This document shows positions 4,793-55,243 of a stretch of 64,000 nt of DNA, in pieces; the stretch's first letter is position 1; every line of letters starts with the position of its first letter. Below the pieces are notes generated by a model that was not told where the DNA came from, did no database searches, and saw only the letters and a program-made list of their open reading frames with translations. Position numbers and translations under genes: made by a program. The stretch is taken from the NCBI GenBank assembly GCA_004376375.1, contig SOJX01000009.1:17570-81569 (forward strand), read 5' to 3'. Source of the stretch: Planctomycetota bacterium (lineage in GTDB: Bacteria; Planctomycetota; E44-bin39).

Positions 4793-4815
4793 CTCCAGGT
4801 TTATTCCGGATTTCG

Positions 4816-4842: not shown

Positions 4843-5191
4843 TATCGCCTTCCGTTCCCCCCTCCCGGGCGGCTTGCTCTCTGCCTTCGGTTAGAGCCGT
4901 TGCGGATAAACATTTTCAGGCCTTAGCCGTCTGGACTGAAACTGACTGACCAGACCATATCTCCGTGCCAGCGGAGTGTGGGCAACTCATTTCCTGTTTG
5001 ACATCGTCCTGTGCCAGTGGTTGGCTGCATCGCTAAGAACTTAAGCGACCTTGAAAATATTTACGTTCCACGTAAAAAAGGCTGGACGTTAGTTTAAAAT
5101 CAACATATGATAGAAGGTTGATAACATGTAGTTTTCCTGGAAGAAACGGGGAAGACCTTTCTTTTATATCCAATAAAGTCTGTAGGAGACG

Positions 5192-8861: not shown

Positions 8862-8870
8862 ATCACAATA

Positions 8871-12775: not shown

Positions 12776-12780
12776 CGCAC

Positions 12781-18339: not shown

Positions 18340-18373
18340 CCGAAACCTCCTTTTGACACTTCCGCTTCGCGCC

Positions 18374-19459
18374 TCAACTTATTTCCGTGAGCCATGCGTA
18401 TTCCTTAAGGAAGCGGACCTCCTCGTCAATCTCGTTTTCTCTAAGCCTATAGGAGAACAGGCATCCTGAAGACAAGATGGGGACTCCGACAACATTCCAT
18501 TTCCTCCTCACCCACATCGGAAGAGGTGAGAAGAAGTCGACTACCTCCGTGCCATTGGGCCCGGGCCGAACTCTGAAGATCTGGGGAGTTCCTTGCTCAT
18601 AGTCGATGGCTGCCTGTATTCTCCAGGCCTCGTCACATCCTCGCCAGGTATTGCTCTTCAGCGGAAGATCCACAAACCTGATGGGGTTACCGTCCTTGAC
18701 CTTAACATAACACCAGAGATCCGCCCCATAGGCTTGCGCACGACGGCCAACAAACCGCCCGGTATGGGTTGTCGATTCGACCCAGCGACCTCGGTAGTAT
18801 CGAACGGATCGTCCTGGGTCAAGCAGTACCAACCCTGGAACGTCTCCACCTACCGGTGCGGCATCCAGTAAGCGATTCATTCGCCCAAGATACTCGGCGG
18901 CGGCTTCCGCTTTCGGAGCTTTCAACCATGCGCTGCTCGACAGTTCAATCCAGCCCAACTCTCCCAATTGATCTGCGAACTTTGTTCCTGCGTTGGGTGG
19001 CAGTACTCGAATGTGGTTTATATACTCGACACATTCCACGACTTCGTCAGGGAGTAGAGATACGTCGTCGGGCAGGATCCCCAAGATGACAACCGCGCCA
19101 CTTTGACGTCGCACAAAAGCTGGTGGAGCGAGGTACAGGAGGGCTTTGCACCCGCTACTTTCCTCCTGGCTCGTGTCCGTCAGCTCGAGGAGGTCTCCAT
19201 GCCCGACAAGTGCTTCAAGCGTATCCTCGACCGTCCGTTGTAACTCGTCCAGGTCATCGACCAAGCTCCGAAGAGGTTCAACGACCGCATGGATGAGGGT
19301 ACGAGCAGAACACGGGCACAGGAACCCTGCGGCACGCCGGAGGCAACACGAAACTGCTTCCACGCTGCTGAGATCCAAAGCACTAGGATCGAGGCCCAAC
19401 GCCTCAACCGATGCCTGGTGAACCTCCGCTGTCGATAGAGCTTTCATTCCCATGCCCAC
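18374..19459 (-). CDS. hypothetical protein (third gene of the five-gene operon; DruD-like by position and size only)
   Basis: 361-aa ORF. Tight operon spacing: 16-nt overlap upstream and 34-nt gap downstream. No recognisable motif. Confidence 0.5.
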   Translation of the reverse strand: MGMGMKALSTAEVHQASVEALGLDPSALDLSSVEAVSCCLRRAAGFLCPCSARTLIHAVVEPLRSLVDDLDELQRTVEDTLEALVGHGDLLELTDTSQEESSGCKALLYLAPPAFVRRQSGAVVILGILPDDVSLLPDEVVECVEYINHIRVLPPNAGTKFADQLGELGWIELSSSAWLKAPKAEAAAEYLGRMNRLLDAAPVGGDVPGLVLLDPGRSVRYYRGRWVESTTHTGRFVGRRAQAYGADLWCYVKVKDGNPIRFVDLPLKSNTWRGCDEAWRIQAAIDYEQGTPQIFRVRPGPNGTEVVDFFSPLPMWVRRKWNVVGVPILSSGCLFSYRLRENEIDEEVRFLKEYAWLTEIS

Positions 19460-29353: not shown

Positions 29354-29602
29354 CTAAATTTCCGAGCCCGCCCCGTTACGGATAAATGAAATGATTCTTT
29401 TTACCTGTCTTATTGAAAGCCCTACTTCGCGGGCGATTTGTGCATCCGTCAGACCGCTTTGCTTTAACTGCATAATCCTCCGGTTCCTGTCTTCGTAGTA
29501 TTTCGGCTGCGTCTTCGGAACCCAGAGCATGCCTGTATGGAAATTCTGGACACGGCTCAACAAATCGGGCGGTAGAATGCTAGCGGCGTTCTTGTAACCC
29601 AT
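29354..29602 (-). CDS. Mor-family-like small transcription activator (HTH), paralog 2
   Basis: 82 aa. Central G-x-L-W/Y-V/I-P-K motif (HTGMLWVPK) and C-terminal HTH GLTDAQIAREVGLSIRQVKRII. RBS AGGAGG. Confidence 0.5.
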   Translation of the reverse strand: MGYKNAASILPPDLLSRVQNFHTGMLWVPKTQPKYYEDRNRRIMQLKQSGLTDAQIAREVGLSIRQVKRIISFIRNGAGSEI

Positions 29603-29627
29603 CGCGACCTCCTTCTATAAATTTGAC

Positions 29628-29861
29628 TCAAGTCTTTTGCGCCTGCCTGGCTTCGTGGAGTATCTGCTGAACCCTGCGAGCAGAGAGGTAAACGATTTCT
29701 GCGATTTGGGAAGGCTTCAGCCCTTGCTGGCTGAGTTTCATGATTTCCTTGTCGCGCTCCTTACCTTCAGCAGGCGGAATGTAAAGCAGGCCCACGTGGT
29801 ATTCCCGGACTCGCATTAATAATTCAGGTGGTAGAACAATTGCCGCATTTTTATAAGCCAT
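29628..29861 (-). CDS. Mor-family-like small transcription activator (HTH), paralog 1
   Basis: Start moved to MAYKNAA (aligned with the paralog MGYKNAA), with RBS GGAGG 6 nt upstream. HVGLLYIPP motif and HTH LKPSQIAEIVYLSARRVQQIL. The ORF track gives 29628..29894. Confidence 0.5.
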   Translation of the reverse strand: MAYKNAAIVLPPELLMRVREYHVGLLYIPPAEGKERDKEIMKLSQQGLKPSQIAEIVYLSARRVQQILHEARQAQKT

Positions 29862-29994
29862 AACGACCTCCTTCCAAAACAAAAGTCGAAGCATTTTTAC
29901 CGTGGAGGTCTCGTGGAATTCTCGTGTGGGTCCCGGCTTCTTTTGAAAGCGCAGGTAGTGAACGTTCTGGTCTCGATAGGTTCTCGTCGAAAAT

Positions 29995-30783
29995 CTATCC
30001 GTCGCAAGGACGTGGTTTCTTGTTGCGAACTTTCATGATGTTGGCCGAGCGGTCAATATTAGCGCTGACCTTGAAGCCTCGCTTCTTGGCCGCGCCTTTG
30101 AGTACACCGGTCACGGCTTGAATCATCTCGGTCGAAGCATTGATGTTTCGGGCAAGCTGCTGGATGTCGCGGGTTTCGTAAAACTCGCCGTCGTCGTGGA
30201 CACGCTTTAGTATTCCAGAGTCCTGGCAAAGGTCCAGCATCTCAGCCACGGCCAAGTGACATGTGAGGAAGTGAACCGCGTACTGCGTCTTTGTGAATCC
30301 TTGGCCGCGCCAGAGGTTACCATTGCCAAGCCGCCCGAGCATGATGTCAAAGGACTCGCATCCTTCACCCACGTCAACGGCAAGCAGTATGCCATTGCCC
30401 AATTTCTTTATCCTGTCAGCGCGCCGCTGTGAGACTTCTCCTGTCTTGATGCGCAAGCGATGGTAGCGCCGCCTGTCACGCGGCGAAAGCTTGCCAACAT
30501 TTCCTGTGCCGCCGATGCGCATGACAATCTCCATCAGCGCTTTGTCCGCTTTCGTTTGGCGGAAGTATGATAACATCATCGTCAGCCCCAGCATGTTCTC
30601 GAGGGCACGCTTCTCGCTTTGCCGCGCGAACCCTCTCTCCAGCCTGGCACGCTTGATTTCGACGATTTCCCCGACCGATTCCACGGGAAAATCCCCGAAT
30701 CGGCTTCTTAGCCATTCCAGTTTCTTCAGGAGCGCGGTCTTTGTGCCCCTGAACTCGAACGTGTAGAATATGCTCAGTCCCAT
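29995..30783 (-). CDS. hypothetical protein
   Basis: 262-aa ORF in the same orientation as, and upstream of, the Mor-like pair. No recognisable domain. Confidence 0.5.
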   Translation of the reverse strand: MGLSIFYTFEFRGTKTALLKKLEWLRSRFGDFPVESVGEIVEIKRARLERGFARQSEKRALENMLGLTMMLSYFRQTKADKALMEIVMRIGGTGNVGKLSPRDRRRYHRLRIKTGEVSQRRADRIKKLGNGILLAVDVGEGCESFDIMLGRLGNGNLWRGQGFTKTQYAVHFLTCHLAVAEMLDLCQDSGILKRVHDDGEFYETRDIQQLARNINASTEMIQAVTGVLKGAAKKRGFKVSANIDRSANIMKVRNKKPRPCDG

Positions 30784-30812
30784 TCCGCCTCCCTACGGTC
30801 ATCTCCATTAGC

Positions 30813-31259
30813 TTATTCGTCGAATTTCCAGATTCTCATGTGCTCGAAGCGCGGCGCAAGTGTCTCCATGCGCTTCTGGACTTCCCCGGCGCTACGGCAC
30901 TCGGTAAATGTCTGCGCAAGCGCAAGGCGGCCCTCTACAATGTTCGTCAGCTTTTTTTCTGCATAAACGTCATCGAGCAGGCGAGTATCGAACCGCTTCG
31001 GCTCCTCATCGCGGTCGAGAAACAGGAACTCCTCCAGCGCGTTCCGAAGGCCGAGCTTTATGGTCCAGTTCCCATCTGCACGGCGCAACGTCAGCACCGG
31101 ATTCACTATGCCGTCCTCGTAACGTTCCACTGTTTTTTCGACAACCTCGAATCCCATAGCCTGTACTCCGGCCTCAAACCGCTTTGCCAACTCCGGCAGC
31201 CAGCAGGTAAGAATGAGCATTGCACCGGTCGTTTCCTCGGAATTTCCGAATTTGAGCAT
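30813..31259 (-). CDS. hypothetical protein (start chosen at MLKFGN, translationally coupled to the upstream small ORF; the ORF track offers 31295)
   Basis: ATG lies 1 nt after the TAA of the 50-aa ORF. No RBS for the 31295 start. Confidence 0.45.
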   Translation of the reverse strand: MLKFGNSEETTGAMLILTCWLPELAKRFEAGVQAMGFEVVEKTVERYEDGIVNPVLTLRRADGNWTIKLGLRNALEEFLFLDRDEEPKRFDTRLLDDVYAEKKLTNIVEGRLALAQTFTECRSAGEVQKRMETLAPRFEHMRIWKFDE

Positions 31260-31260
31260 G

Positions 31261-31413
31261 TTAAACCTCGAGCATGTCCGCGACGAAGCGTACAACTTCG
31301 GGTCGGTCGCAGTACTCGCGCAGAAGCTCCACGACCTCGTTGACTAAATAATAGCCTTCTTCTATTCCCAACTCGTTGTTGGGTATGTACAAGGTGCCCG
31401 AAAACTCACTCAT
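31261..31413 (-). CDS. small 50-aa protein (below the ORF-track cutoff)
   Basis: Reverse-strand ORF MSEFSGTLYIPNNELGIEEGYYLVNEVVELLREYCDRPEVVRFVADMLEV. RBS AAAGGAGG 9 nt upstream. Acidic. Confidence 0.4.
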   Translation of the reverse strand: MSEFSGTLYIPNNELGIEEGYYLVNEVVELLREYCDRPEVVRFVADMLEV

Positions 31414-31725
31414 TGCCTCAACCTCCTTTGATATAACAGGTTACGCACATATGGGCATTATCCGACGACGAAGTCAAGATATTTACATCATTTGGGTTTT
31501 GGGTCGATCTAACTCGTTTTTCCGGATTTTAACGCTTAAAAACCTCCCAACGCATTCATCTTTGTCAAGTAATGCACTCGGCCTCGAAAAAACAAGCCAA
31601 AGCATTATCGATTATTCTATGCGCAGGCTATGACTCGCGAAATCCTCCGTTATTCACCGGCAAAACACTCTAACCAGTTTTGCATAAACCGGTTACGACG
31701 ATTCAAAGCGGCGTCCGTCATAATT

Positions 31726-32469
31726 TCAGTGTAGCCAAGAAGTTATGCTTATGTCGGGCCAGCGCAAACAAAGGTGTTGGCTTTTCGGCAGGTACGACAT
31801 AACGGGCACACGAAAACGGCTTCGACGTAACTGTTCCATATGCATACATTTACGCCTCTCCGACCCCATGGGTTTTGGCGCGGCGGTCGGGCCGTGCGCA
31901 TAACCGCCGTTACTGAGCTGGTGCGTTTCGAGCATCCCTATCCCGCTTTCGAGCTCGCTCTTGTAGCCTCCCGTATGGAGGGCCATCTCGGAAAGGAACC
32001 ACGAGCCGATTGAAAAACCCCAGTTGTCGAAATCGTTCCCGCCGCCGCCGCGGTCGGTGATGTGTGCGGCCACGTAATCGGCAGCGTCTTTCAAAGCACC
32101 GGACTTGGGATCGTCGCCGGCCGCGAGCATGGCGAGCCCGCAATAACTCGCCGATACAATCGGTCCCGCCGGCGGCGGATATCCGCTGTTCTTCCAGTTG
32201 CTGCGGATGTAATCCAGTCCTTTGCTCGATGCCCCGGACCAGCTCGCGGGCTTGTTGGGTGAATTGGAGATTTTCCCGTTTATAGTCCCCGGTCCGGTAC
32301 CGGTGCCGGTCCCGGTTCCCGAGCCTGTTCCTCCACCGCCGCCACCGCCGGAACGGGAAGATTTATGCCCGTCAGAGCAGGACGGGATTAACGTCAAACC
32401 GATAGCCGCTATCAATATTATTATGAAGTGTGTTATGCTTACGGCGTTGAATGAATGTTTGTGTTTCAT
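31726..32469 (-). CDS. secreted lipoprotein with Gly/Thr-rich linker; possibly 3'-truncated
   Basis: Start set at MKHKHSF, with RBS GGGAG upstream. Signal peptide plus LIPSC. Linker (G)7TGSGTGTGTGTGPGT. Repeat-like GGYAHG / NWGFS segments. The last 45 or so codons look non-protein-like and run into a lower-GC region. Confidence 0.45.
   Translation of the reverse strand: MKHKHSFNAVSITHFIIILIAAIGLTLIPSCSDGHKSSRSGGGGGGGTGSGTGTGTGTGPGTINGKISNSPNKPASWSGASSKGLDYIRSNWKNSGYPPPAGPIVSASYCGLAMLAAGDDPKSGALKDAADYVAAHITDRGGGGNDFDNWGFSIGSWFLSEMALHTGGYKSELESGIGMLETHQLSNGGYAHGPTAAPKPMGSERRKCMHMEQLRRSRFRVPVMSYLPKSQHLCLRWPDISITSWLH
32285..32345. repeat. GGN/ACN-type hexanucleotide low-complexity coding repeat (Gly-Thr linker)
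   Basis: ccggtaccggtgccggtcccggttcc... encodes the TGSGTGTGTG linker. Confidence 0.7.
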
Positions 32470-32529
32470 TCCCTTTTCTCCCTTCCGTGCTTGCGTATGT
32501 GTCATGGACAGCCTCGTTACACTCTGATG

Positions 32530-35028
32530 TTATTTCTTCTTTGACAGGACCACCGTGAGCGCGACAACCTTCGTAGTTGCAACGCAGTCCTCGTTAGAAA
32601 GAATGACAAACCAGTCATCGTTGGATGGGATAATGAAATCCCCCGACTTTGAAGATATGTTATGAGAGATTTCATGGGCATCGAACGAGGCGCCGCCGGC
32701 GTAGGCCATGAAGTTTGCGGAATCGCAGATGAAGAAATCCGCGTGCGCGTTACTGCGGACGTAGCTGAAAGTTTTGGCGTGCAGTGGCTCCGGAACGCTG
32801 TCGACGGGGCAGGTTCCGTGCATCATTTCCGACGGCACCTCAACCGCGAAATCGAGTTTGTAGTTGTCGAGAGGACTTGGCAGCTGACCCGCCGCGCCCG
32901 GCTTCGGCACGGGTATGCTCCCGCTGAGGGTCGCCGAGCGGGATACCGTCCCCTTGTCTTCGACTTTTACCGATTCGGTCGTGCCGTCTCCAACGATGCT
33001 GTTGATTTTGATTCCGAAACTTTTCGCTGATGCAAGCGCAACGTTGCATTTGCCGGAAGTGTCGGTATAGCCGATTCCGGCGTACTGCGGCCTCGGGTGC
33101 CCCGCGCTGGAAATCTTCAGCTGCACGCCGTCGACCGGGTTGCCGTCCGCGTCCGTGACGGTCATGTCGAGCCTTTTGACGCTGGTGTATCTTTCGGTGA
33201 TGGTCTCCGAATACCCGTCGCCGCGCCACGACAGGACGGCCGAGATCGGCATCCACTCCCAGCCCCAGTCGTCGTAAGCGCGGGGGTCGTCAATCATAAA
33301 ACCGTTCCACTCCGACTTCGAGGGCTCCCACTGGACCCATCTTCTATCGTAGAACTCGTTCCACTTGTGGTTGTTCGCGTGACTGCCCGTCGCGGCCCCC
33401 GGGATAAGCGCGGTTCTTGTCGCCGCGGCCGTGACAATTGCATGCGGCGTGCAGGAGCCGCTGTGCGTGTGATGTATCGAAAGAGGCTGAGTGGGATCAG
33501 GTTTGCCGCCGCCGCCAACGAAACTGATGTTTATCCATTCGGCAACCGCGGCGATAGCGTCGTTATCGTCACTGTTTTTCTTGCACTTCCATACGCTTTG
33601 ACATCCGATAAGCACGTCTTTCAGCGGGAAATAAGTAACCCTGTCCGGCGGATCGCAGAGATTGAAGAAAAAGTCGCGCCAGAAATAGCCGTCGATATAC
33701 TGCGGCTCTTCCACCATGACGACGGGATGCACAATGTAGTAGTAGTATATATCTCTCGGAAGCTCTACCTGTTTGCGGACTCCCCCCTCTTCGACCCAGT
33801 ACCTTGTGGTGGAGTAGTAATTCGGATCGCTGCCCGAAGTTCCGTAATCGATAACATCGACATAATCAAGCACGTCATCGGCCGAGTAGATATGCTCGGC
33901 ATTCTCCCTGATAATCGCGAGGTCCATTACGGCGAGGTCTTCATGCGCGATGTGGGCCACGCAGAAAACTATCTCGTCGAGGTATGGGTCGGACGCGTCC
34001 AGTATCAGCCGGGCGCACGAATCCTGAATGCTGCTGCCCAGGAATGAGAAATTCTCCGCCAGCTCGTGTGCAAGCCATTTTGGCGCTTTCTCAACCGCGT
34101 CTTTCGCAAGCGAAGTCAGGTTCTCCTGCGGGCGCAGGACCTCGAGGGCCGAACTGCTGCTGTTGAAACGGACGCAGACGCGCTCGCCGGCCGGTATCCT
34201 TACTTCCAGGCTTACCGAGTCCAGTTTCTCCCACGCGGGGTCGGTTACGGTTATCGAAAACTCCTCGCCCGCGGTCTTTTGCGGCGAGCTTGAATCCTCG
34301 ACCCGGACCGCGAAATCGAAAATACCGGCCGTGCCGGGCGTACCGGAGATTTCGCCGGTCGACGGGCTGAGGCTGAGGCCGTCGGGAAGCGAGCCGCTAA
34401 GGATCGACCATGCATAAGGAGTCGTACCTCCTGCCGCACTTAGCGTTCCGCTGTACGCGACTCCAAGTACGGCGTCCGGGAGCGATTCGGTCTCGAGCGT
34501 CAGCGCGCTTCCGGGCTCCTCAATAATTATGGAAAACTCCTTCGTCGCCTCCTGCAACGGCGCACTGCCGTCAGTAACTTTTACGGTGAAATCGAAACTA
34601 CCCGCTGCGGTGGGGGTACCTGAAATTCTTCCTGTCGATGGTGTAAGGTTAAGACCGCTCGGCAGAAAGCCGCTTGAGATGGACCATGTGAAGGGAGAAG
34701 TACCCCCTGCCGCAGTGAGAATTCTGCTGTATGGAATTCCAACCGTACCGCCCCAGAGCGAATCAGTCGCTATCCAGAGCGGATTCGCACCTGTTCCGGT
34801 TCCGGATCCTGTGCCGCTGCCCGTTCCTGTGCCTGTTCCCGTGCCGGTGCCTGTTCCCGTTCCTGTTCCTGTTCCCGTGCCGGGGCCCGTCCCTGTGCCA
34901 GGCCCGGTTCCCGTACCGGGTGGGTTCTGGCTGCTGCCTGATTTCTTGTTACTGCCGCACCCCGGCAGGCAAAATGTCAAGCCGAATACGGTTACGATTA
35001 CGATGAGAATAAAATAGACCCGTTTCAT
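32530..35028 (-). CDS. transglutaminase-like lipoprotein with two putative Ig-like repeats and a long (GT)n linker
   Basis: 832 aa. Signal peptide with lipobox LPGC. Linker of about 45 residues of GTG/PGT. Two repeats P(F/Y)(T/A)WSI(S/L)SG(F/S)LP(S/D)GL(N/S)L(T/S)PSTG(R/E)ISGTP. Transglutaminase core GSCTPHAIVTAAATRTALIPGAATGSHANNHKWNEFYDRRW (Cys...His...Asp). ATGA overlap with the STAS gene. Confidence 0.7.
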   Translation of the reverse strand: MKRVYFILIVIVTVFGLTFCLPGCGSNKKSGSSQNPPGTGTGPGTGTGPGTGTGTGTGTGTGTGTGTGTGSGTGSGTGTGANPLWIATDSLWGGTVGIPYSRILTAAGGTSPFTWSISSGFLPSGLNLTPSTGRISGTPTAAGSFDFTVKVTDGSAPLQEATKEFSIIIEEPGSALTLETESLPDAVLGVAYSGTLSAAGGTTPYAWSILSGSLPDGLSLSPSTGEISGTPGTAGIFDFAVRVEDSSSPQKTAGEEFSITVTDPAWEKLDSVSLEVRIPAGERVCVRFNSSSSALEVLRPQENLTSLAKDAVEKAPKWLAHELAENFSFLGSSIQDSCARLILDASDPYLDEIVFCVAHIAHEDLAVMDLAIIRENAEHIYSADDVLDYVDVIDYGTSGSDPNYYSTTRYWVEEGGVRKQVELPRDIYYYYIVHPVVMVEEPQYIDGYFWRDFFFNLCDPPDRVTYFPLKDVLIGCQSVWKCKKNSDDNDAIAAVAEWINISFVGGGGKPDPTQPLSIHHTHSGSCTPHAIVTAAATRTALIPGAATGSHANNHKWNEFYDRRWVQWEPSKSEWNGFMIDDPRAYDDWGWEWMPISAVLSWRGDGYSETITERYTSVKRLDMTVTDADGNPVDGVQLKISSAGHPRPQYAGIGYTDTSGKCNVALASAKSFGIKINSIVGDGTTESVKVEDKGTVSRSATLSGSIPVPKPGAAGQLPSPLDNYKLDFAVEVPSEMMHGTCPVDSVPEPLHAKTFSYVRSNAHADFFICDSANFMAYAGGASFDAHEISHNISSKSGDFIIPSNDDWFVILSNEDCVATTKVVALTVVLSKKK
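34786..34925. repeat. long hexanucleotide low-complexity coding repeat encoding the (GT)n linker
   Basis: About 23 tandem degenerate copies of ccnGTn; the opposite frame reads PVPVPVPV. Confidence 0.75.
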
Positions 35029-35387
35029 GCTGTATTCTCCTTTTGTGATTCTGGACGACGATAACTATGTGCATTTTCGGAAAATTTGCCCAGCGCAGCA
35101 GAGGCGAGCCACTCGACGCCGAGGCTCCGGACAGGTGGAAAGATATCGACGCTCAGGTTTCCGTTTTGACACTTAACCCAGTCGAGAACCGTAACGCCGA
35201 TAGAGTCAATCGATGTTATTTTACGAAGGTCGAGCATGATTTCCCGACTCTGGAATTCTACCGCGGACTGCAGAAGCTCCAGAATCCTCCTGGCAGTATG
35301 GCCGGTGAACTTGCCTGCAACCTGCAACCGTAACTTTCCGTTTTCGTAACAGAATAGGGTAAATGCGACTTTCATGATAATTTCCAT
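35025..35387 (-). CDS. STAS-domain protein (anti-sigma-factor antagonist, SpoIIAA-like)
   Basis: 120 aa. LDLRKITSIDSIGVTVLDWVKC fits the STAS signature. Directly downstream of a sigma-54 promoter. Confidence 0.6.
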   Translation of the reverse strand: MEIIMKVAFTLFCYENGKLRLQVAGKFTGHTARRILELLQSAVEFQSREIMLDLRKITSIDSIGVTVLDWVKCQNGNLSVDIFPPVRSLGVEWLASAALGKFSENAHSYRRPESQKENTA

Positions 35388-35427
35388 ATTTTAGAGCAAA
35401 AATTATTGGAATCGCTACTATTGATTT

Positions 35428-35443
35428 AGCAAGATTTGAGCCA
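35428..35443 (-). promoter_or_regulatory. sigma-54 (-24/-12) promoter TGGCTC-N5-TTGCT driving the STAS / transglutaminase-lipoprotein operon
   Basis: Minus-strand read TGGCTCAAATCTTGCT against the consensus TGGCACGnnnnTTGCW: two mismatches, exact GG-GC spacing. About 40 nt upstream of the STAS start codon. Confidence 0.55.
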
Positions 35444-35540
35444 AATGGTTTTTAGATGGCCGAGATTCGTATAACTAGTGTGTGTTCAATGTGTTAGGTG
35501 GTGTGCAAGTGATAGTTCATGGAGATTGCCAGGAAGGGGA

Positions 35541-35588
35541 GTGTCAACTGTATTGACACATTACGGTCTGTGTCAATGTAGTTTACAC
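35541..35588. promoter_or_regulatory. two tandem palindromic candidate enhancer (UAS) sites GTGTCAA-N5-TTGACAC and GTGTCAA-N5-TTTACAC
   Basis: Perfect 7-bp IR at 35541-35559 and a one-mismatch copy at 35570-35588. Centres 29 bp apart. 100-150 bp upstream of the sigma-54 promoter and directly beside the sigma-54 activator gene. Confidence 0.45.
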
Positions 35589-38500
35589 TATCTTGGGCGT
35601 TGGATTCCCCACTCTTTTCTCTTCTTGAAAATCTGCTGTCGGCTGACACCGAGCAGTTTTGCCAGTTGGGTTTCATTGTGATTATGCTGGTGAGCGAGAA
35701 TGAATTCTTTCATATAATTTTCAAGTGAAAGTTTACGGCTGATTATGCTTTCCGGTTCAGGCTGATGTTCCCGGCTGCTCATTACTTTCACAATGTCACC
35801 GGTAGTAATGCGGTTGCCGGCCATTACGAACGCCTGCTGGAGTATGTTTCGCAGTTGTCGCACATTGCCGGGATAATTGTAGCCGGACATTTTCGCAAGC
35901 GCCTCCGATTCAAGCGGTTTTTCAGGCACGTCCAGATCACCGGCAAGTTCATTGAGAATGTGCTTTACAAGAAGCGGGATATCTTCGCGCCGCTCGCGAA
36001 GAGGCGGCAGCTCGATGCGGACAACGTTTAATCTGTAGAAAAGATCTTCACGGAACGCGCCCTGCTCCACAAGCTTTTCGAGCGGCATGTTGGTCGAGCA
36101 CACCAGGCGGATGTCAATGGGAATCGGCATCGCGGTGCCTATCCGCCTGACCTCCCGTTCTTCGATGACGCGGAGAAGCTTAACCTGCATTCCGAGCGGC
36201 ATGGAGGCTATTTCGTCCAGGAACAGAGTACCGCCGTCCGCCGACTCAATAAGTCCTGTTTTATCGGAGCCCGCGCCCGTGAAGGCGCCTTTAACGTGCC
36301 CGAAAAGCTCGCCTTCAAGCAGCGATTCCGTCATGGCGCCGCAATTGATCGAAACGAACGGCCCTTCCTTCCGGCTGCTGTTGTAGTGGAGCGCTTTTGC
36401 GACAAGCTCCTTCCCCGTCCCCGTTTCGCCGTAGATGTAGGCGGTCAGGTCGGTATCGGTAACGGAATCGAGGAGGCTGAAGAGTTCGCGCATCGGTTTC
36501 GACTGCCCTACGATGCTGGTGTAGGCGTACCGTGTCCGCACCTCTTTCTGAAGGGAGCTAAGCCTTGTCCGCATCTTTTCCTGCTCGACGGCGTTGGAGA
36601 TAATAGGCGCGATACGCTCGGCGAGTGCTTCGACGAAATGGAGATCGGCTTCGGTGAAACTGCGGGCGAGCGACGTGGTATCGAGATAGACCACCCCCAT
36701 CGTCCGGCCTTCGCTTTTAATCGGCACGCAGAGCACCGAGCAGAGGCTGAGGTCTACCACGCTTTTCGCGTCGCGAAGCGATTCGTCCATGTTAACGTTG
36801 GCGACAAGCCTTGACTGGCCGCTATTGATGACTTCTCCAACCATGGTGTGGCTTGTCTGGTATTCGGGCGAAGTGATTTCCCTGTCGCGAATGTTACGCA
36901 CCGACAGGTGTTTGAGGCCGGCACCCTCATCGACAAGGATGATAAAACCGCGCTCGGCCTGGATAGTGTCAAGCACCATAGCGAGTGCGAGGTCAAGCAG
37001 CTTTTCAACGTCAAGCTCGGTCGCGGCGAGGCGCGCGATCATCTCGAGGAGCGCCATCTCCCGCCGCGCTACATGACTATCGTATACGCCGTGGATATCC
37101 AGGACCTGTTGATCGAGTGTAAAATCCTCTTCGGGGAACTCGGTTATTTTTTCTTTTCCAGGCGGTCCTTTCCGGAAGGGGTCAACGTCATCCAACGGGC
37201 TGAAGAACGGAGATTCCCTCAGCTGCTGCCTGTCGTACCCTTCGGGCAGCACATCGGCAATGAGTTTATAGGCATTTTCCGCTTCATTGAAATGCCCGGC
37301 CGCGAGCTCGAGATTATCCTGAGTGGAGGCGGCGAGCGCGGCGGTGAGCGCGGCCTCGAAGACGAGTGCGATGTTATCGGTCCGGTATGCGGTTTTCAGG
37401 GCCTCGGCTGCGATTTCCCGGGCCTTTCCAGCCTTGCCGATTCTCAGGCTGCATCGCGCTTTCAGGATAGTGGTTTCGATTCCGGCAGCCATGCTGAGTT
37501 TTTCATTTTCAAGCCGTGCAAGGATTTTTTGCGCTGCCGGGATTCTTCCGGTTGTTATGAGTACCCCGGCCCCGGCCAGTTCGATGCCCCACCCGACCTG
37601 TCCGGTGATTTTCAATTCCTGCGCCTGTTCTATCAGACGGCGGGCGCGTTTGATATCTCCCGTGATCATGGCGTGCCTCGCGGAGAGGGCCAGCGCTTCG
37701 CCGAGCCTTGCAGGGCTCTGCGGCCCGGCAAGCTCCCGGGATTCGGACAGGTCCCGCTCGGCGGCTTCGAAATCACCGCAGAGGAACGCGAGCGCTTCCG
37801 CCCTGAGATTCAGGACCGTTGTTTCCAGCGGCGTTATGCCGGCTTTACGGGCAATCTGAAGGGCCTCTTCGAAGTATGCGAGCGCGTCGGCGGTCCTTCC
37901 GAGTACGGTGCACACCGTTCCGAGAGAGATGGGGCAATGCCGCTTGAGAGTAGAGCTTGCTGTTTTCCCCGCCACTTCACTGGCCTGCTCGAATGAGGAA
38001 AGGGCTTCCCTTGTTCGTCCCGAGGCGAGGTGGACGTCACCTATGTTTATCATCACGGCGCCGATACTTACTTCATCACCCGAAATCTCGAAGAACCGCT
38101 TGGCCGCGGTGTAGGCGTCGAGTGCTTCGTCGTACTGCCCGAAATCCTTGAGCACGTTGCCGATATTTCCCTGGGTGTATGCAACACCCATGAGGTTGCC
38201 TCTTTTTTCATAAGCATCGAGGGCGATATAGTAATGCACAAGCGCTTTTTCCGGTTTCCCTTTTTCCAGATCGATACCGGCCAGCAGGACGTGCATGCGC
38301 TCGAAATGGTCTTTCGCGGATTTCCGCCGCAGTATCCGGTTGGCGCGCTTCACGGCATCGGCATATTTTCCGCGCCCGTAATCAGAACTTGCGAGATGAC
38401 TGTCTATGGTATTAATTTTTTCCTTGTCTTTGAGAGACTTGAAGATGTCCCTTGCCTCGGACAATAACTTTCGTGCTTTCTCAGGCTCGCCTTTGTGCCC

Positions 38501-40921
38501 CGCGACGCGCCCCAGATGAATAAGCAACTCTCCCTTCAGGGGTTTTGAGTTTTTCACCCCCGGTCTGTCCTGCGCTTCCTGAAGGAAGAGTTCGGCTTCG
38601 TCCGCTTTTCCCGACCGCAGGCGAAGAGTAGTATGAAACCACGCAACGGTGGCGGCGTACTCCGGATATTTCCACAGCTCGTCGCTTGAAGCGGCGGTAA
38701 TGCAGTCAAAGACTCTCTCGAGCCTCGCGCGGCGCCAGTAACACTTGGCCAACCAGTCAAGCGCCTCGAACCATCCTTCCGTTCGGCCGGGCAGGCGTTT
38801 CTTGAGCGCTTCGAAAAGCCGGACAGCGGACGATATCACTCCGGTCACCGCTGCATGCTTCGCCCCATCCCAGAGCAGTGGCAGCAGTTCGTCTTCACCG
38901 ACGCCGGCTTTCTCCGCGTGTATCGCGCGCTCTATGAGCTCGGTATTTTTCTTTTTCAGATAAGAATATATCTGTCCGTGCATTGCGCGGCACTGCTCAC
39001 GAGGTATAATACGCAGGACAACTTCACCCAGACGACCGCTCGCGAATGCGTAGTTACCTTCTTCATCGGCCCAGAGCAGTCCACGCGAAAGCAGATGCTT
39101 AACCGCGGCGGCGCATGCGTCGGGCGGTATCGCGGACGCTTCCTGCAGCAGGTCGAATTCGGCGGGGCGTTCGACGCATGCGAGCGCGTCAACGACGACA
39201 CGCTCATCTTCGACCAGCGATTTGATTCTGCGCTGGAGCGCTTCTTCACCTTTTGCCGGCGGTTTCAGGCCGGCAAATGCCGCGGTTGTACGCCATTTCC
39301 CCGCCTCAAAGAAAAGGAGCCCGGTCTCAAAAAGCTGCTGAACGGTCTGCTCTATGATAAGCGGGTTCCCCCCGGCCGCATCAAGCACGGTAGACAGCAC
39401 ATTCGCGGGCAATTCGGAGCCGCCCAGCATGGCGGAAAGCAGTCCTGCCGCGGCTTCCCTGGTAAGCGGAGACAGCGAAACCTGCCCGGCGATTCCCTGT
39501 GCGCTCGAGCGGTCCATATACCCGATCACGGTTTTGGCGGTTTCCACCTCGGTATTGCACGCGCACAGAACAAGCAGAGGCACGTGCTTACCTTCCTGCA
39601 ATCCGAGCCAGAGCACCCGTGCGAGATGTTCGAGAAAGGAAAGGGTGTCTTCGTCAGCATTTTCCAGGTCGTCAATCGAAATAACCAGCGGCCGCAGGGC
39701 CGCTGTTTCCATGAGCAGGAGCGCAATATCGTGCATGACTCTGCCGTGCTTTACCATATCCGGGTCCCGCTCTTCCCCGGCAAGCATGCCCAGAGTTTCC
39801 TCGAACTCATCCAGAGTTTCTTTCGGAAGTGCCTGGATAATATTGCCGATAACTTCCGCAAAGGGACCGTAAGGCCGACGGCGCGAGGCCGAGCATCTGC
39901 ATTTTATGAGCAGGTTGCCTTTCAGTTGGGCAAAGTAGCCTGCTTCGCGCAGAAGGCGGCTTTTTCCGATTCCGGTCTCACCGGTAATAAACCATAGCGA
40001 AGGTTTGCCCGGACCCTCCCTGAGTGAATCCATCAGGGCCCTGAAATGGTCCAGCTCTTCCTCTCTTCCGATAAAACCGCCGCCGAGAAGATATGCAAGC
40101 GCTGTCTCGACCGTCTCCTCTTCCAGTGAAATATCCATGGCCTGGGAGAGCGCGCGATTGACCTCGTTGGCCGTATAATATCTCAAGCCGGGCTCGCGCT
40201 CGAGGAGGCGCAGGACAATACGCTCCAGCTCGACCGGGACATCTATTTTGAATTTACGCGGCGGCTCGGGCTCCGTCGCGGCCTGCAATCTGAGCACCTC
40301 GAGAATTGAATCGTCCTCGTACGGGCGCTTGCCCGCAATGGCTTCATAAAAGACGACGCCCAGCGAATACAGATCGGAGCGCGGATCGCCGAGCTCTCCG
40401 CGGACGACTTCAGGTGCGGCATAGCCTATCGTCCCGCGCATCGAGCCCGATATCGGCGTTTCGGTAGTCGCAAGGCCGAAGTCGATCAGCCTCGCGACCC
40501 GGTTCGTATCGACTATGATGTTGCCGGGCTTGACATCGTAATGAATTATTCCGCGGGAATGTATATGCTGAAGTGCGCGAAAGACCTGAGCGAAAAGACG
40601 GGACCCGTCTGCGAAGTCGAGACCTTTGCACATCTCAACGATATTACTTCCTTCGATGTACTCGGAAGTGTAGAACCACAGGCCGGATTTCTCGTCAAGG
40701 CCGAAATCGTAAACCCGCGCGATATTCGGGTGACGGATTTTGGTGAGGGTCGAAAACTCGTGCCGCATGAGCTCGAGGTGCCGCGTGCCCGGCGTCTCGA
40801 GCAGCTTCAGCGCAAGAAGTCTTTTGTCTTCAAGCCTGTCCCTTACCAGATAAACCTTCCCCGCAGCTCCCTTGCCGAGAAGCTTTTCAACTTTATAACG
40901 GTTTGCGACAACTTTTGGCAA
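35588..40921 (-). CDS. Multidomain regulator: Ser/Thr protein kinase / STAND-type P-loop NTPase / TPR repeats / GAF / sigma-54-interaction AAA+ / Fis-type HTH
   Basis: 1777 aa. Kinase motifs GKGAAGKVY, LALKLL, HYDVKPGNI, DFGLA, GTIGYAAPE. P-loop GETGIGKSRLL. Long TPR-like region. Sigma-54 AAA+ motifs GETGTGKELVAKALH, ELFGHVKGAFTGA, GGTLFLDEI. C-terminal HTH LAKLLGVSRQQIFKKRKEWGI. Confidence 0.85.
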   Translation of the reverse strand: MPKVVANRYKVEKLLGKGAAGKVYLVRDRLEDKRLLALKLLETPGTRHLELMRHEFSTLTKIRHPNIARVYDFGLDEKSGLWFYTSEYIEGSNIVEMCKGLDFADGSRLFAQVFRALQHIHSRGIIHYDVKPGNIIVDTNRVARLIDFGLATTETPISGSMRGTIGYAAPEVVRGELGDPRSDLYSLGVVFYEAIAGKRPYEDDSILEVLRLQAATEPEPPRKFKIDVPVELERIVLRLLEREPGLRYYTANEVNRALSQAMDISLEEETVETALAYLLGGGFIGREEELDHFRALMDSLREGPGKPSLWFITGETGIGKSRLLREAGYFAQLKGNLLIKCRCSASRRRPYGPFAEVIGNIIQALPKETLDEFEETLGMLAGEERDPDMVKHGRVMHDIALLLMETAALRPLVISIDDLENADEDTLSFLEHLARVLWLGLQEGKHVPLLVLCACNTEVETAKTVIGYMDRSSAQGIAGQVSLSPLTREAAAGLLSAMLGGSELPANVLSTVLDAAGGNPLIIEQTVQQLFETGLLFFEAGKWRTTAAFAGLKPPAKGEEALQRRIKSLVEDERVVVDALACVERPAEFDLLQEASAIPPDACAAAVKHLLSRGLLWADEEGNYAFASGRLGEVVLRIIPREQCRAMHGQIYSYLKKKNTELIERAIHAEKAGVGEDELLPLLWDGAKHAAVTGVISSAVRLFEALKKRLPGRTEGWFEALDWLAKCYWRRARLERVFDCITAASSDELWKYPEYAATVAWFHTTLRLRSGKADEAELFLQEAQDRPGVKNSKPLKGELLIHLGRVAGHKGEPEKARKLLSEARDIFKSLKDKEKINTIDSHLASSDYGRGKYADAVKRANRILRRKSAKDHFERMHVLLAGIDLEKGKPEKALVHYYIALDAYEKRGNLMGVAYTQGNIGNVLKDFGQYDEALDAYTAAKRFFEISGDEVSIGAVMINIGDVHLASGRTREALSSFEQASEVAGKTASSTLKRHCPISLGTVCTVLGRTADALAYFEEALQIARKAGITPLETTVLNLRAEALAFLCGDFEAAERDLSESRELAGPQSPARLGEALALSARHAMITGDIKRARRLIEQAQELKITGQVGWGIELAGAGVLITTGRIPAAQKILARLENEKLSMAAGIETTILKARCSLRIGKAGKAREIAAEALKTAYRTDNIALVFEAALTAALAASTQDNLELAAGHFNEAENAYKLIADVLPEGYDRQQLRESPFFSPLDDVDPFRKGPPGKEKITEFPEEDFTLDQQVLDIHGVYDSHVARREMALLEMIARLAATELDVEKLLDLALAMVLDTIQAERGFIILVDEGAGLKHLSVRNIRDREITSPEYQTSHTMVGEVINSGQSRLVANVNMDESLRDAKSVVDLSLCSVLCVPIKSEGRTMGVVYLDTTSLARSFTEADLHFVEALAERIAPIISNAVEQEKMRTRLSSLQKEVRTRYAYTSIVGQSKPMRELFSLLDSVTDTDLTAYIYGETGTGKELVAKALHYNSSRKEGPFVSINCGAMTESLLEGELFGHVKGAFTGAGSDKTGLIESADGGTLFLDEIASMPLGMQVKLLRVIEEREVRRIGTAMPIPIDIRLVCSTNMPLEKLVEQGAFREDLFYRLNVVRIELPPLRERREDIPLLVKHILNELAGDLDVPEKPLESEALAKMSGYNYPGNVRQLRNILQQAFVMAGNRITTGDIVKVMSSREHQPEPESIISRKLSLENYMKEFILAHQHNHNETQLAKLLGVSRQQIFKKRKEWGIQRPR

Positions 40922-41242
40922 AGTAACCTCACAGGCTCCAAAGCAAAGTACATTCTATCATCACCAGATTCAAGCCAAAAAATTCTCGCGTACTGGGGGG
41001 GGTCTTTCTTTCCGCGTAGATGTGTTTCGGGAAAAACTATTTCTGATAACTATAAACCATGTTGTGTGATAACAAACGTAACATCCCGCCTGCATTATCG
41101 CCTTGTTACCCCGGCCATCGCAGGGGTTCTCTCTTGCGTCACCCTTGCGCACACAGGTTTCTCTGAACTGCTTCGGATTGCTTTGAACTGCATATTCGAG
41201 GAGGGTGGGTGAAAAATAAAAGGAACAGCCTGTTACAGAGCA

Positions 41243-41328
41243 CTGCATAAACAGGTTGACATCCGGCCCCACCGAACCCCGGGAAAATGGAAGGGCGTTT
41301 TTAACCGCGTGTCAACCTGTTTATGCAG
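41243..41328. repeat. perfect 19-bp inverted repeat pair (CTGCATAAACAGGTTGACA ... TGTCAACCTGTTTATGCAG) separated by 48 bp
   Basis: Seen directly, about 320-400 bp upstream of the sigma-54 activator start. Contains the GTCAAC/TGTTTAT core shared with the 35.5-kb UAS sites. Confidence 0.6.
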
Positions 41329-41457
41329 GATTCTTTAGTTGCCGTGTCTATGCGTTTTCTTTTCCCTTCGAGCCGTATCTCCCATTTTCATTTGAATTTC
41401 CCCAATCCTCGCATATAATTCATCTATAAGGAAGTAAACCTAGAAATTATCCTTACT

Positions 41458-41520
41458 ATGTCCCCGAAATACAATGTCCCCGAAATACACATGTCCCCGA
41501 AATACACCCCGGAATACACC
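41458..41520. repeat. tandem direct repeat, about 3.7 copies of a 16-17-bp unit ATGTCCCCGAAATACA(C)
   Basis: Seen directly. Sits exactly where homology between the two GT-like paralog loci ends. Confidence 0.75.
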
Positions 41521-53951: not shown

Positions 53952-55223
53952 TTAGTCTTCCTTGATGGGAACGGGCATCTTGGCTTCCATGGGCACACCA
54001 AGCGGTCCGCCTCCGGCACTAAAAAAACGAGCGGCTTGTCCCCAGTATCCAGCAGTGCTGATTTCAAAAGGACACAGGGATGGGTGGTGAAAATACTGAC
54101 TGCCTGTTCCGGCCCCCAGCGCGAGCAGATAGTTTCTCGGCTTAAGCACGTTTGCCGGAGCGATGCATTCATAGACCCAGGTTCCTGCAAGACGTTTTTC
54201 ATAGAGTTCCGGAAAAAGATCCAAATCGCTCATGCCCCACAAGGATTGGCCTAACGCATCCGTAATATTTGTTACAACCGAAAGGCCGCTAATGTCCTTT
54301 TCTATACGATAGGTGATTCGAAATTTGATTGGTTCATCTGCCCTGAAAACACTTGTTGGTTCATCTTTGCTATTAAGCATCTCCAGCCGCAGGAATTGAA
54401 CTGCATGCTCCGCACCATCGTCGAACGTATATGCACCCGATTTAACCCCCATACCCATAAATAAATACTTCTCACAAATTGACTCCGAGTCACCGATTTT
54501 ATTAACTTTTCCTTCTTCAAGCCAGATCGTTTTCGGGCAAAGCCTTGTTATTGCGGACATGTTATGACTCACAAAAAGAATAGTCCTGCCTTCTTCGGCA
54601 ACAGAGTCCATTCTCCCCAAACACTTTTTCTGAAACTCCACATCACCAACGGCAAGAACTTCGTCAATAAGCAATATTTCCGGCTGCAGGTGTGCGGCAA
54701 CCGCGAACGCGAGCCGAACGTACATACCGCTCGAATAGCGCTTGACCGGCGTGTCGATGAACTTCTCGATGCCGCTGAAATCCACTATCTCGTCGAAATT
54801 TGCCTTGATCTCTGCTCGCTTCATGCCGAGTATCGCGCCGTTGAGAAATATATTCTCCCTGCCCGTTAGCTCGGGGTGGAAACCGGTACCCACTTCGAGC
54901 AGGCTAGCCACTCGACCATTTATTTCCGCGCGCCCTTTCGTCGGCTCGGTTATGCGGGATAGTATCTTGAGGAGTGTGCTTTTCCCGGAGCCATTTTTTC
55001 CTATTATGCCGAGAATCTCGCCGCGCTTCATCTCGAACGATACATCCTTCAGCGCCCATATCGTGTCCTTGGCGTCTTCATCGAGCAGGCTCTTGCCGGT
55101 AAGCCGCCTGAAGCGGGAAAATAACCAGTCCGAGGCCATTTCACGGAATGAATCGTGTTTTTTCCGCATACCGATCCGGTACACTTTGGAAAGGTCTTCG
55201 ACTTTAATAACGATGTCCGACAA
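53952..55223 (-). CDS. polysaccharide-export ABC transporter ATP-binding protein (Wzt/KpsT/TagH-like) with C-terminal extension
   Basis: 423 aa. Walker A GKNGSGKSTLLK, signature YSSGMYVRLAFA, Walker B LLIDEVLAVGD, H-loop SHNM. Extra C-terminal domain of about 150 aa, as in O-antigen-binding Wzt. Confidence 0.85.
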   Translation of the reverse strand: MSDIVIKVEDLSKVYRIGMRKKHDSFREMASDWLFSRFRRLTGKSLLDEDAKDTIWALKDVSFEMKRGEILGIIGKNGSGKSTLLKILSRITEPTKGRAEINGRVASLLEVGTGFHPELTGRENIFLNGAILGMKRAEIKANFDEIVDFSGIEKFIDTPVKRYSSGMYVRLAFAVAAHLQPEILLIDEVLAVGDVEFQKKCLGRMDSVAEEGRTILFVSHNMSAITRLCPKTIWLEEGKVNKIGDSESICEKYLFMGMGVKSGAYTFDDGAEHAVQFLRLEMLNSKDEPTSVFRADEPIKFRITYRIEKDISGLSVVTNITDALGQSLWGMSDLDLFPELYEKRLAGTWVYECIAPANVLKPRNYLLALGAGTGSQYFHHPSLCPFEISTAGYWGQAARFFSAGGGPLGVPMEAKMPVPIKED

Positions 55224-55243
55224 ACGATACCTCGGAAATGAGA

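Follow-up and report, generated by a model that had tools for sequence, protein, structure and literature searches.

In a 64,000-nucleotide stretch of the planctomycete contig SOJX01000009.1 (hereafter the window), a gene for a giant regulatory protein is followed by genes for a STAS-like protein, a transglutaminase-like lipoprotein and a 247-aa lipoprotein. The sequence between them, positions 35428–35588, is in all likelihood the control region of these three genes as one operon, and the giant protein very probably switches on this adjacent operon by way of two private binding sites (upstream activating sequences, UAS) and a sigma-54 promoter. The activator gene, the UAS, the promoter, and the operon are all encoded on the minus strand. 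The locus is one of at least 11 paralogous cassettes in a planctomycete lineage, at least three of which belong to this metagenome-assembled genome (MAG), and the comparison among these cassettes is what we regard as decisive for the predicted control region. An initial annotation of this DNA had proposed that a fusion of a Ser/Thr kinase and an enhancer-binding protein activates a STAS/lipoprotein operon here; the computational analysis supports that proposal, with the same layout recurring behind ten paralogous activators. The analysis traced the window to a MAG labelled Planctomycetota bacterium (GCA_030588815.1, contig JAUUWX010000016.1) and to JGI metagenome 3300022538. Sigma-54 regulation is established in Planctomycetota (PMC12316311). 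The public annotation of the cassette parts reads 'tetratricopeptide repeat protein' or 'hypothetical protein'.

The candidate promoter, TGGCTCAAATCTTGCT at 35443..35428, has a −24 GG at 35442–35441 and a −12 GC at 35430–35429, which is the canonical GG-N10-GC spacing, and its position predicts a transcription start near 35417. The initial annotation had described the site as TGGCTC-N5-TTGCT with exact −24/−12 spacing, and that description is accurate; the accompanying label 'textbook-like' suits the spacing and is slightly generous for the sequence, which agrees with 12 of the 14 specified positions of the consensus TGGCAC-N5-TTGCW. The site does lie upstream of the STAS-like gene, as had been said, although the −12 GC is 54 nt from the likelier start codon at 35375 and not about 40 nt. 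A scan of the window with the classical consensus YTGGCACGRNNNTTGCW at two or fewer mismatches recovered the site, with a total near the chance level (six matches versus 2.95 expected); of the other five matches checked, three fall within long open reading frames (ORFs). A scan with TGGC-N7-TTGCW gave three matches versus 1.37 expected. The significance of the promoter comes from its position and from its conservation across the paralogous cassettes.

The two palindromes upstream of the promoter share the consensus GTGTCAA-N5-TT(G/T)ACAC. The proximal one is a perfect 7+5+7 repeat (minus-strand reading 35559..35541, GTGTCAATACAGTTGACAC), and the distal one carries a single mismatch (35588..35570, GTGTAAACTACATTGACAC). 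The proximal palindrome is centred 108 bp and the distal one 137 bp upstream of the −24 GG, or about −132 and −161 relative to the predicted start; these distances and the centre-to-centre spacing of 29 bp agree with the 100–150 bp and the 29 bp given for them earlier. The pair is rare in the window, where two matches are found at two or fewer mismatches versus 0.17 expected. The earlier statement that the palindromes adjoin the stop codon of the enhancer-binding protein gene also holds, down to an overlap: the distal palindrome shares one base, its G at 35588, with the TAG stop of the activator gene.

The control regions of 11 cassettes were compared: that of the window and ten more, taken downstream of activators on sister contigs of this MAG and in two sister metagenomes (L008–L016 are contigs with relatives). 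The promoter pattern used for the comparison, GG[CT][AT][CT]N5T[TC]G, was set post hoc, after nine activator-downstream regions had been viewed. Each of these nine regions contains exactly one match on the operon strand, 45–100 nt ahead of the first start codon, whereas a background of 3.0e-4 per nt predicts 0.67 matches in the 2240 nt examined (Poisson, 4e-8). Because the pattern had been tuned post hoc, it was applied unchanged to two regions fetched once the criteria were fixed, L015 and L016. L015 yielded a single match (GGTATGGATGTTGC, 66 nt before the ATG), as did the 905 nt of L016 (GGCATGTGTGTTGC, 61 nt before the ATG), and the palindromes of these two out-of-sample regions are centred 108.0 bp (L015) and 108.5 bp (L016) upstream of the GG. 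With palindromes defined by 7-nt arms and at most one mismatch, 8 of the 11 cassettes have one centred 107–110 bp upstream of the GG, compared with 3 of 127 other matches to the promoter pattern in the same loci (binomial P = 1.5e-11). A second site follows 19 or 28–29 bp further upstream in four of these eight cassettes; second sites were recorded in L008, L010b, and L011, and L010a has a half-site about 30 bp upstream. The half-site sequence varies among the cassettes (GTGTCAA in the window; GTGTTAA, ACGTTTC, TGCCGTA, TTGTCTTG, TGTTGCT, and GTTACC in paralogues), while geometry and position are constant. The promoters of the lineage conform to the consensus GG(C/T)A(T/C)(G/A)-N4-TTG(C/A/T), followed by A/T-rich sequence.

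A further conserved element is located between the palindromes and the promoter. All 11 cassettes have a [T/C]AAC box at −52 to −55 from the GG, for which the chance expectation is about 0.06 per cassette, and the remainder of the enhancer-promoter spacer is unconserved. In the window, the [T/C]AAC core of the box TAACACATTGAA begins 54 bp upstream of the GG. The element resembles a site for integration host factor (IHF) in reverse orientation (YAA-N4-TTGA): AA-N4-TTGA is present at the mid-spacer position in 5 of the 11 cassettes, including that of the window, and the strict IHF consensus WATCAA-N4-TTR occurs in the spacer of only one of the 11.

The protein expected to act at these sites is composed of a Hanks-type Ser/Thr kinase, an AAA_16 STAND ATPase, tetratricopeptide repeats (TPR), a GAF domain, a sigma-54 AAA+ domain, and a Fis-type helix-turn-helix (HTH), in that order. 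The Pfam matches include Sigma54_activat (E = 1.9e-69), Pkinase (E = 1.3e-41), AAA_16 (E = 9.8e-28), TPR_12, TPR_MalT, GAF_2, and AAA_lid_14, and the C-terminal 80 residues match HTH_8 with 22.3 bits (gathering cut-off 22; E = 1.1e-4), a family that scores 36.5 and 61.6 bits in activator paralogues. The sequence motifs are intact in the kinase (GKGAAGKV of the G-loop, ALK, HYDVKPGN, DFG, and AAPE), in the STAND ATPase (GETGIGKS), and in the AAA+ domain, where GETGTGKE, GAFTGA, LFLDEI, and REDLFYRL cover Walker A and B and the R-finger. By this domain content, the upstream gene is predicted to encode a full bacterial enhancer-binding protein, and the fusion of kinase and activator that the initial annotation had named is confirmed by the intact kinase together with Sigma54_activat and HTH_8.

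A search with the central region of the activator returned 11 full-length relatives of 1754–1785 aa that are 39–48% identical to it in that region, and at least five giant activators belong to the same MAG (two each in L009 and L015, and that of the window). Among the paralogues, the kinase and AAA+ domains are 73–74% identical, compared with 44–45% for the central sensor region and the HTH; the HTH region, at 44%, is the most diverged part. The recognition helices likewise differ from paralogue to paralogue (SRQQIFKKR, TRTNLWQKR, GRKTLWLRR, DRDTLRRKL, and HRSWLYARC). This distribution suggests that input sensing and DNA specificity have diverged and that the catalytic engines have been kept. 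As each cassette has its own half-site and recognition helix, the circuits are probably insulated from one another. Shorter activators without the kinase and the AAA_16 module are also present in the set, in L012 (6357–8840, minus strand, 827 aa) and in L008 (2626–5403, plus strand, 925 aa), with the architecture TPR-(GAF)-sigma-54 AAA+-HTH_8. Behind the one in L012 are a GG-N10-GC promoter of canonical form, GGCATAATCTTCGC, and an operon for CAP, lipoprotein, and C25-peptidase products that has no STAS gene.

Several observations weigh against a sigma-54-dependent control region of this kind. The promoter match in the window is by itself not beyond chance, and in 3 of the 11 cassettes no clear palindrome occupies the position where one would be expected. 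Classical sigma-54 promoters conserve the −12 'C' to about 90%; only 6 of the 11 cassettes, including that of the window, have it, and the others have TTGA or TTGT. The −12 element is often followed by an A/T-rich, TATATA-like stretch, a possible sign that those paralogues use a different kind of promoter. The cassettes share ancestry, such that part of the positional conservation could be inherited and not selected; against this objection, the surrounding spacer sequence has diverged. The divergence of the STAS-like proteins does not correlate with that of the activator domains (Mantel r −0.10 to 0.11, p 0.3–0.5), and co-evolution thus lends no support to a specific STAS-activator pairing. 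No rpoN gene was found within the window, to which the search was limited; that the MAG has RpoN is suggested by its at least five activators with intact GAFTGA motifs.

These points leave room for other explanations of the same sequences. The palindromes could function in RNA, as a terminating or stabilizing hairpin at the 3′ end of the activator mRNA, and not as DNA enhancers. When the RNA from 35605 to 35525 is folded, one palindrome pairs with the other (−24.8 kcal/mol, z = −5.6, 0 of 200 shuffles as good), and the resulting long hairpin begins at the activator stop codon. Such a hairpin, however, is unavoidable for any two copies of one palindrome. It is followed by UCCCCUUCC, which has no U-tract, a terminator scan is silent there, and the sites of several paralogues are A/T-rich (for example, GTGTTAATATATTTAACAC). 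A scan of 31000–41500 against Rfam found no known RNA family. L008, L012, and L016 are informative here, as they have extra DNA between the activator stop and the operon: their palindromes are 0.7–4.6 kb from the stop codon, to which they are thus not tied, and still keep 108.5–110 bp to the promoter, with no insertion within the spacer of about 100 bp. Nor would a terminator require a distance to the GG that stays constant within 3 bp in eight cassettes. A hairpin in place of an enhancer is thus improbable, and a secondary role of the palindromes in RNA may exist alongside their predicted role in DNA.

Alternatively, the promoter could be real and the palindromes bound by another regulator, a repressor or a global factor, with the activator acting elsewhere or from solution. 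Some sigma-54 activators function without binding DNA, and both the uncorrelated divergence of STAS-like protein and activator and the three cassettes without a clear palindrome would fit such an arrangement. Yet the activator retains a Fis-type HTH, which is the region that diverges fastest, in parallel with the half-sites that distinguish the paralogues; none of the cassettes encodes a further DNA-binding protein; and sites at about −130 to −160 from the predicted start are in the classical range of enhancers. Adjacent activators with palindromic sites are, moreover, a documented pattern (PMC4641369). We consider it quite unlikely that another protein occupies the sites. That a sigma-70-type promoter drives the operon, with the GG/GC match a coincidence, is very improbable indeed. 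Such a promoter could be formed by the TTGACA within the palindromes and TACAGT, or could lie close to the start codon, where A/T-rich sequence resembles a −10 element; the former (TTGACA-18 nt-TACAGT, 35576..35547) agrees with 10 of 12 sigma-70 consensus positions; the chance-level score of the lone sigma-54 match and the TATATA-like stretch directly after −12 in several paralogues point the same way. The TTGACA, however, is the half-site of the window paralogue, and the half-sites of other cassettes bear no resemblance to a −35 element. Sigma-70-like matches in the region are at chance (4 versus 3.0 expected), and the one strong match among them is the palindrome half-site itself. The one motif that keeps a constant distance to both the palindromes and the first gene in all 11 cassettes is GG-N8-TTG. 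An activator-bound enhancer acting on a sigma-54 promoter is the interpretation that we carry forward.

The positions of the genes behind this promoter are given in the table below. At 35028–35025, one ATGA contains both the stop of the STAS gene and the start of the lipoprotein gene, which is the coupling that had been described. The next lipoprotein gene had been placed 60 nt downstream, and with the second Met (MKHKHSF, 32469) as its start it does lie that far from the end of the lipoprotein gene; the NCBI annotation likewise starts there and gives 247 aa. The ORF is open up to 32505, which would make an alternative product of 259 aa. The product of this third gene has no Pfam family and no relative among the proteins of the other cassettes. 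A terminator-like hairpin about 30 nt past the gene is the probable end of the operon. Beyond it, at 29354–31413 on the minus strand, are five small genes without annotation (50, 148, 262, 88, and 82 aa), none of whose products has a Pfam family; the 88- and 82-aa products are paralogues of one another (M..YKNAA.(V/I)LPP(E/D)LL.RV...).

Table. Positions, strands, and basis of assignment for features of the window; a dot stands for a feature without strand.
Feature	Positions	Strand	Basis or remark
Activator gene (1777 aa)	35588..40921	-	TAG stop 35590-35588; domain search and motif inspection
Distal UAS palindrome GTGTCAATGTAGTTTACAC	35570..35588	.	Sequence search
Proximal UAS palindrome GTGTCAACTGTATTGACAC	35541..35559	.	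Sequence search
Mid-spacer box TAACACATTGAA	35485..35496	-	Alignment of cassettes
Sigma-54-type promoter TGGCTCAAATCTTGCT (predicted)	35428..35443	-	Consensus scan and cassette comparison
STAS-like gene (SpoIIAA/RsbV-type, 116 aa)	35025..35375	-	Pfam, profile, AlphaFold2 (AF2) model
Transglutaminase-like lipoprotein gene (832 aa)	32530..35028	-	Pfam, homologues, AF2 model
Third gene, orphan lipoprotein (247 aa)	31726..32469	-	ORF and lipobox LIPSC
Terminator-like hairpin	31671..31695	-	10-pair stem, then GAGTGTTTTG T-rich tail
DruA	22368-23561	-	E=5e-143
976-aa gene of the Druantia block	19444-22374	-	No PADLOC match
DruD	18374-19459	-	E=5e-121
DruE	12781-18339	-	1958 bits
DruK-like PD-(D/E)XK nuclease	11519-12775	-	
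Type I restriction R subunit HsdR	269-3334	+	
TerB_N/TerB/TerB_C protein	5192-7555	+	
BrxC/BrxD-type ATPase	7539-8861	+	E=2e-148
DEAD-box helicase	8871-11078	+	

The first gene of the operon had been predicted to encode a STAS protein similar to anti-sigma-factor antagonists, and Pfam, a profile match, and the predicted fold all bear this out. Two ATG codons could start it, at 35387 (120 aa) and 35375 (116 aa); the second is more likely, because the family alignment, the family representative, and the NCBI call all begin there. The product scores 23.5 bits against the Pfam STAS family (cut-off 22.6). Its own family is small, with only 20 relatives found in an exhaustive search of 1.84 billion representative proteins, and D57, S58, and G60 of the D-S-x-G motif are invariant in the 20 members. 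Among solved structures, the family profile matches SpoIIAA best (1th8_B, E = 8e-4), with SiDSlG aligned on FMDSSG. The AF2 model (predicted local distance difference test score, pLDDT, of 76, above 85 in the core) has the topology beta-beta-alpha-beta-alpha-beta-alpha, with Ser58 at the start of helix 2, and its best matches in the PDB are SpoIIAA, RsfB, RsbV, and TM1442 at a template-modelling (TM) score of about 0.6. Scans of genome contigs with the lipoprotein or STAS alignment, and of metagenome contigs with the STAS alignment, returned nothing or generic STAS segments inside larger proteins (L013 and L014); the STAS-like family is very narrow.

In the other cassettes, the STAS-like proteins are 41–55% identical to that of the window over the aligned parts. 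The gene is present in nine of the ten cassettes that have a kinase-bearing activator and absent from the single cassette under a kinase-less short activator (L012, 827 aa). None of the 11 cassettes encodes an HATPase_c kinase of the SpoIIAB/RsbW type or a PP2C phosphatase. The protein thus resembles a STAS switch, and the cassettes do not appear to contain a classical partner-switching module. There is precedent in Mycobacterium tuberculosis for phosphorylation of a STAS homologue, Rv0516c, by a Hanks kinase, PknD (PMC1847690). We tentatively propose that the STAS-like protein might be phosphorylated by the activator's kinase, or interact with it, and thereby provide feedback, because the two genes co-occur in nine of ten cassettes, the protein has a phospho-serine motif, no SpoIIAB, RsbW, or PP2C is encoded nearby, and PknD-Rv0516c offers a parallel.

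The second gene had been described as encoding a secreted transglutaminase-like lipoprotein, and the Cys/His/Glu triad, the lipobox, and a predicted fold resembling transglutaminases agree with this description. The 832-aa protein begins with a signal peptide and the lipobox LPGC (MKRVYFILIVIVTVFGLTFCLPGC-GS, judged by inspection), which are followed by a Gly/Thr/Pro linker, two He_PIG domains, the transglutaminase-like core, and a Big_1-like domain. Its score against Pfam Transglut_core is 22.0, just below the cut-off of 23. Searches with the whole lipoprotein were uninformative, being dominated by the He_PIG immunoglobulin-like repeats at about 22% query coverage, and the C-terminal 568 aa were used in their place; this part has full-length homologues of 29–44% identity, many of them with PF01841 and tails for the type IX secretion system (T9SS). 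Across the aligned family, Cys262 and His290 never vary, and the third residue, Glu304 in place of Asp, hardly does. In the 832-aa protein, the cysteine of the HSGSC motif is residue 526. The AF2 model (pLDDT 88.8; predicted TM score, pTM, 0.91) finds TG2, TG3, and FXIII as its best PDB matches (E = 6.6e-6, probability 0.99), with a low global TM of about 0.2 that reflects differing arrangements of the domains. No activator or STAS gene is located near the transglutaminase homologues, and their neighbourhoods are therefore unusable for a test of the promoter.

Across the set, the operons comprise one STAS-like protein of about 100–115 aa and two to seven lipoproteins behind the giant kinase-activator gene. 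Most of these lipoproteins belong to one of four families that recur among the cassettes, including a family with CAP domains, and the window cassette is, judged by this comparison, atypical of the family in its transglutaminase cargo. More than 30 cassette proteins (L008–L016), together with the window at 34790–34960 (minus strand), have a stereotyped N-terminus, in which a signal peptide, (L/A)PGC, and G(S)SxKSSR precede a low-complexity Gly/Thr linker (GTGTGT or GGGG). The C-terminal domains behind it are unrelated to one another (CAP, transglutaminase-like, M10-like, Kelch, or no known family), which suggests a common export or tethering module with exchangeable heads.

The features assembled here can be combined into a mechanism in which we infer sigma-54 dependence, binding of the palindromes, looping, control by a signal, and the link between STAS-like protein and kinase. 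Sigma-54 RNA polymerase would sit as a closed complex at the −24/−12 element, 35443–35428. The 1777-aa activator would contact both palindromes through its C-terminal Fis-type HTH and oligomerize there, and the intervening DNA would loop, probably with the help of bending at the TAAC...TTGA box, some 54 bp ahead of the GG. The GAFTGA-bearing AAA+ domain would then hydrolyse ATP to remodel the closed complex and open the promoter, with transcription starting near 35417. By analogy with their domain families, the kinase, STAND-TPR, and GAF modules would hold the AAA+ domain inactive until a signal is sensed. A wider and more doubtful scheme is that each cassette is a self-contained signalling unit, in which a sensor-kinase-activator similar to STAND/NLR proteins detects a cassette-specific ligand, induces its private lipoproteins, and phosphorylates Ser58 of the STAS-like protein, which feeds back on the activator. 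If true, this would be the first link of STAS partner-switching with sigma-54 enhancer-binding proteins, and the insulated copies would amount to a bank of orthogonal inducible surface programmes, for instance for the recognition of prey, phage, or neighbours.

Further features of the cassette DNA were recorded in the course of the comparison. The extra DNA of L008 (15334–18370) carries three reverse-strand genes, and a 10-bp sequence spanning the activator stop, GCCGGAGTAG, is duplicated at both of its ends in the manner of a target-site duplication. That of L012 (15352–20040) holds a 1267-aa gene and G+C-rich palindromes similar to repetitive extragenic palindromic (REP) elements; that of L016 (15343–16050) holds a gene for a 130-aa membrane protein and REP-like palindromes. 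Tandem heptanucleotide repeats are abundant between genes (GGGATAA, GTACCGA ×7, GTAACGA ×8, the CCTGACA type, and CCTCAGG/TCTCAGG; L008 5400–5560, L009 ~3100–3220 on the minus strand, L012 15343–15400 and 19700–19960, and L016 ~15960–16030) and are reminiscent of the short tandemly repeated repetitive (STRR) sequences of cyanobacteria; past the L009 activator P0165, a (C)CTGACA array takes the place of the usual palindromes. Some paralogous cassettes have a leader motif, ATTGACAATCAAC(T)ATCC, about 25–40 nt past the −12 element (L009 15575–15590, L009 ~2950 on the minus strand, and L011 15530–15550). The leader of the window carries only AAATCAATAG, and many paralogues have TATATA directly after −12. 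Two −24/−12-like sites with TTGC, GGTATGTATTTTGC (L011 24848, minus strand) and GGCACATATATTGC (L009 737, minus strand), are situated just upstream of lipoprotein genes of 311 aa and 380 aa, respectively, the former divergent from the next giant activator gene; both may serve this system as additional sigma-54 promoters.

Elsewhere in the window, a type I Druantia anti-phage system occupies 11519–23561 on the minus strand. Its GC content of 0.57–0.62 exceeds that of the flanks (0.43–0.50), which suggests that the block was acquired horizontally. With the defence-type genes on the plus strand at 269–11078, it forms a defence island that the cassette borders. On the other side, at 41526–64000, is a cluster for the biosynthesis of an O-antigen-like surface polysaccharide, with several glycosyltransferases, Wzm/Wzt-type ABC exporter genes (53952–56260), two DegT aminotransferases, an epimerase/dehydratase, a nucleotidyltransferase, and methyltransferases.

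The cassette is of interest in that one polypeptide unites three types of signalling, a eukaryote-like kinase, a STAND sensor ATPase, and a sigma-54 activator, and in that a single uncultured planctomycete lineage has many copies of the unit of activator, private enhancer, STAS-like protein, and lipoproteins. It offers a defined system for studying how sigma-54 transcription receives input from Hanks kinases and STAS proteins. The paralogue series, with its constant geometry and varied half-sites and helices, makes the recognition rules of the Fis-type HTH testable; the cassettes offer a source of orthogonal sigma-54 switches for synthetic biology; and the −24/−12 consensus of the lineage could improve promoter prediction in Planctomycetota. 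Kinase expansions have been described in this phylum (PMC11032199).

The T9SS-tailed Transglut_core (PF01841) proteins of WOR-3, Wallbacteria, Aegiribacteria, and Cloacimonadota are the counterparts of the window lipoprotein over its C-terminal 568 aa, as judged by the identity given above and by the conserved Cys, His, and Glu. Unlike them, the window protein delivers the domain as a lipoprotein, by way of LPGC, a Gly/Thr linker, and two He_PIG domains. The STAS-like protein shares with SpoIIAA, RsbV, and RsfB a single STAS domain of about 100–116 aa and the invariant D-S-x-G that aligns with Ser58 of SpoIIAA, and, in parallel with PknD-Rv0516c (PMC1847690), the only kinase encoded beside it is of the Hanks type. 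It differs from SpoIIAA and RsbV in that the cassettes provide no SpoIIAB/RsbW kinase or PP2C, in that its gene belongs to a predicted sigma-54 operon beside an activator-kinase fusion, and in the tiny size of its family (20 representatives).

Transcription regulators of the STAND type include MalT, the SARP-NB-ARC-TPR protein AfsR, and GutR, and PknK of Mycobacterium tuberculosis is a STAND-bearing kinase. The window activator is similar to these regulators in placing a P-loop STAND ATPase with a TPR arm on a transcriptional output, and to PknK in the fusion with a Hanks kinase. In contrast to them, its output is a sigma-54 AAA+ domain in place of a LuxR or SARP DNA-binding domain of sigma-70-type regulation, and kinase, STAND module, and activator are joined in one polypeptide.

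With respect to transcription itself, the closest relatives are the NifA/NtrC-type enhancer-binding proteins, as in NifA-nifH, NorR-norVW, and the systems of Desulfovibrio (PMC4641369, PMC2831303), which also have GAF, a GAFTGA-bearing AAA+ domain, and a C-terminal Fis-type HTH. In Desulfovibrio, activator genes are found beside sigma-54-dependent target operons with palindromic sites (PMC4641369), and the resemblance extends to two palindromic sites about 100–150 bp upstream of GG-N10-GC, with a possible bend site between, and to an activator gene that adjoins its target operon. The window activator is distinguished by its length of about 1780 aa and by a Hanks kinase and a STAND module (AAA_16 and TPR) where NifA/NtrC-type proteins have a receiver or a simple sensor. 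Its enhancer starts at its own stop codon, and its cassette belongs to a set of at least 11 paralogues with private half-sites, about half of which have TTGA or TTGT at −12. A literature search, of incomplete coverage, found no description of cassettes in which a kinase-STAND-sigma-54 activator is combined with STAS and lipoprotein genes, and the cassette family is apparently undescribed. The mechanism that it suggests, with an enhancer, an AAA+ activator, and a sigma-54 promoter, is classical; the packaging of the cassette departs from the classical form.

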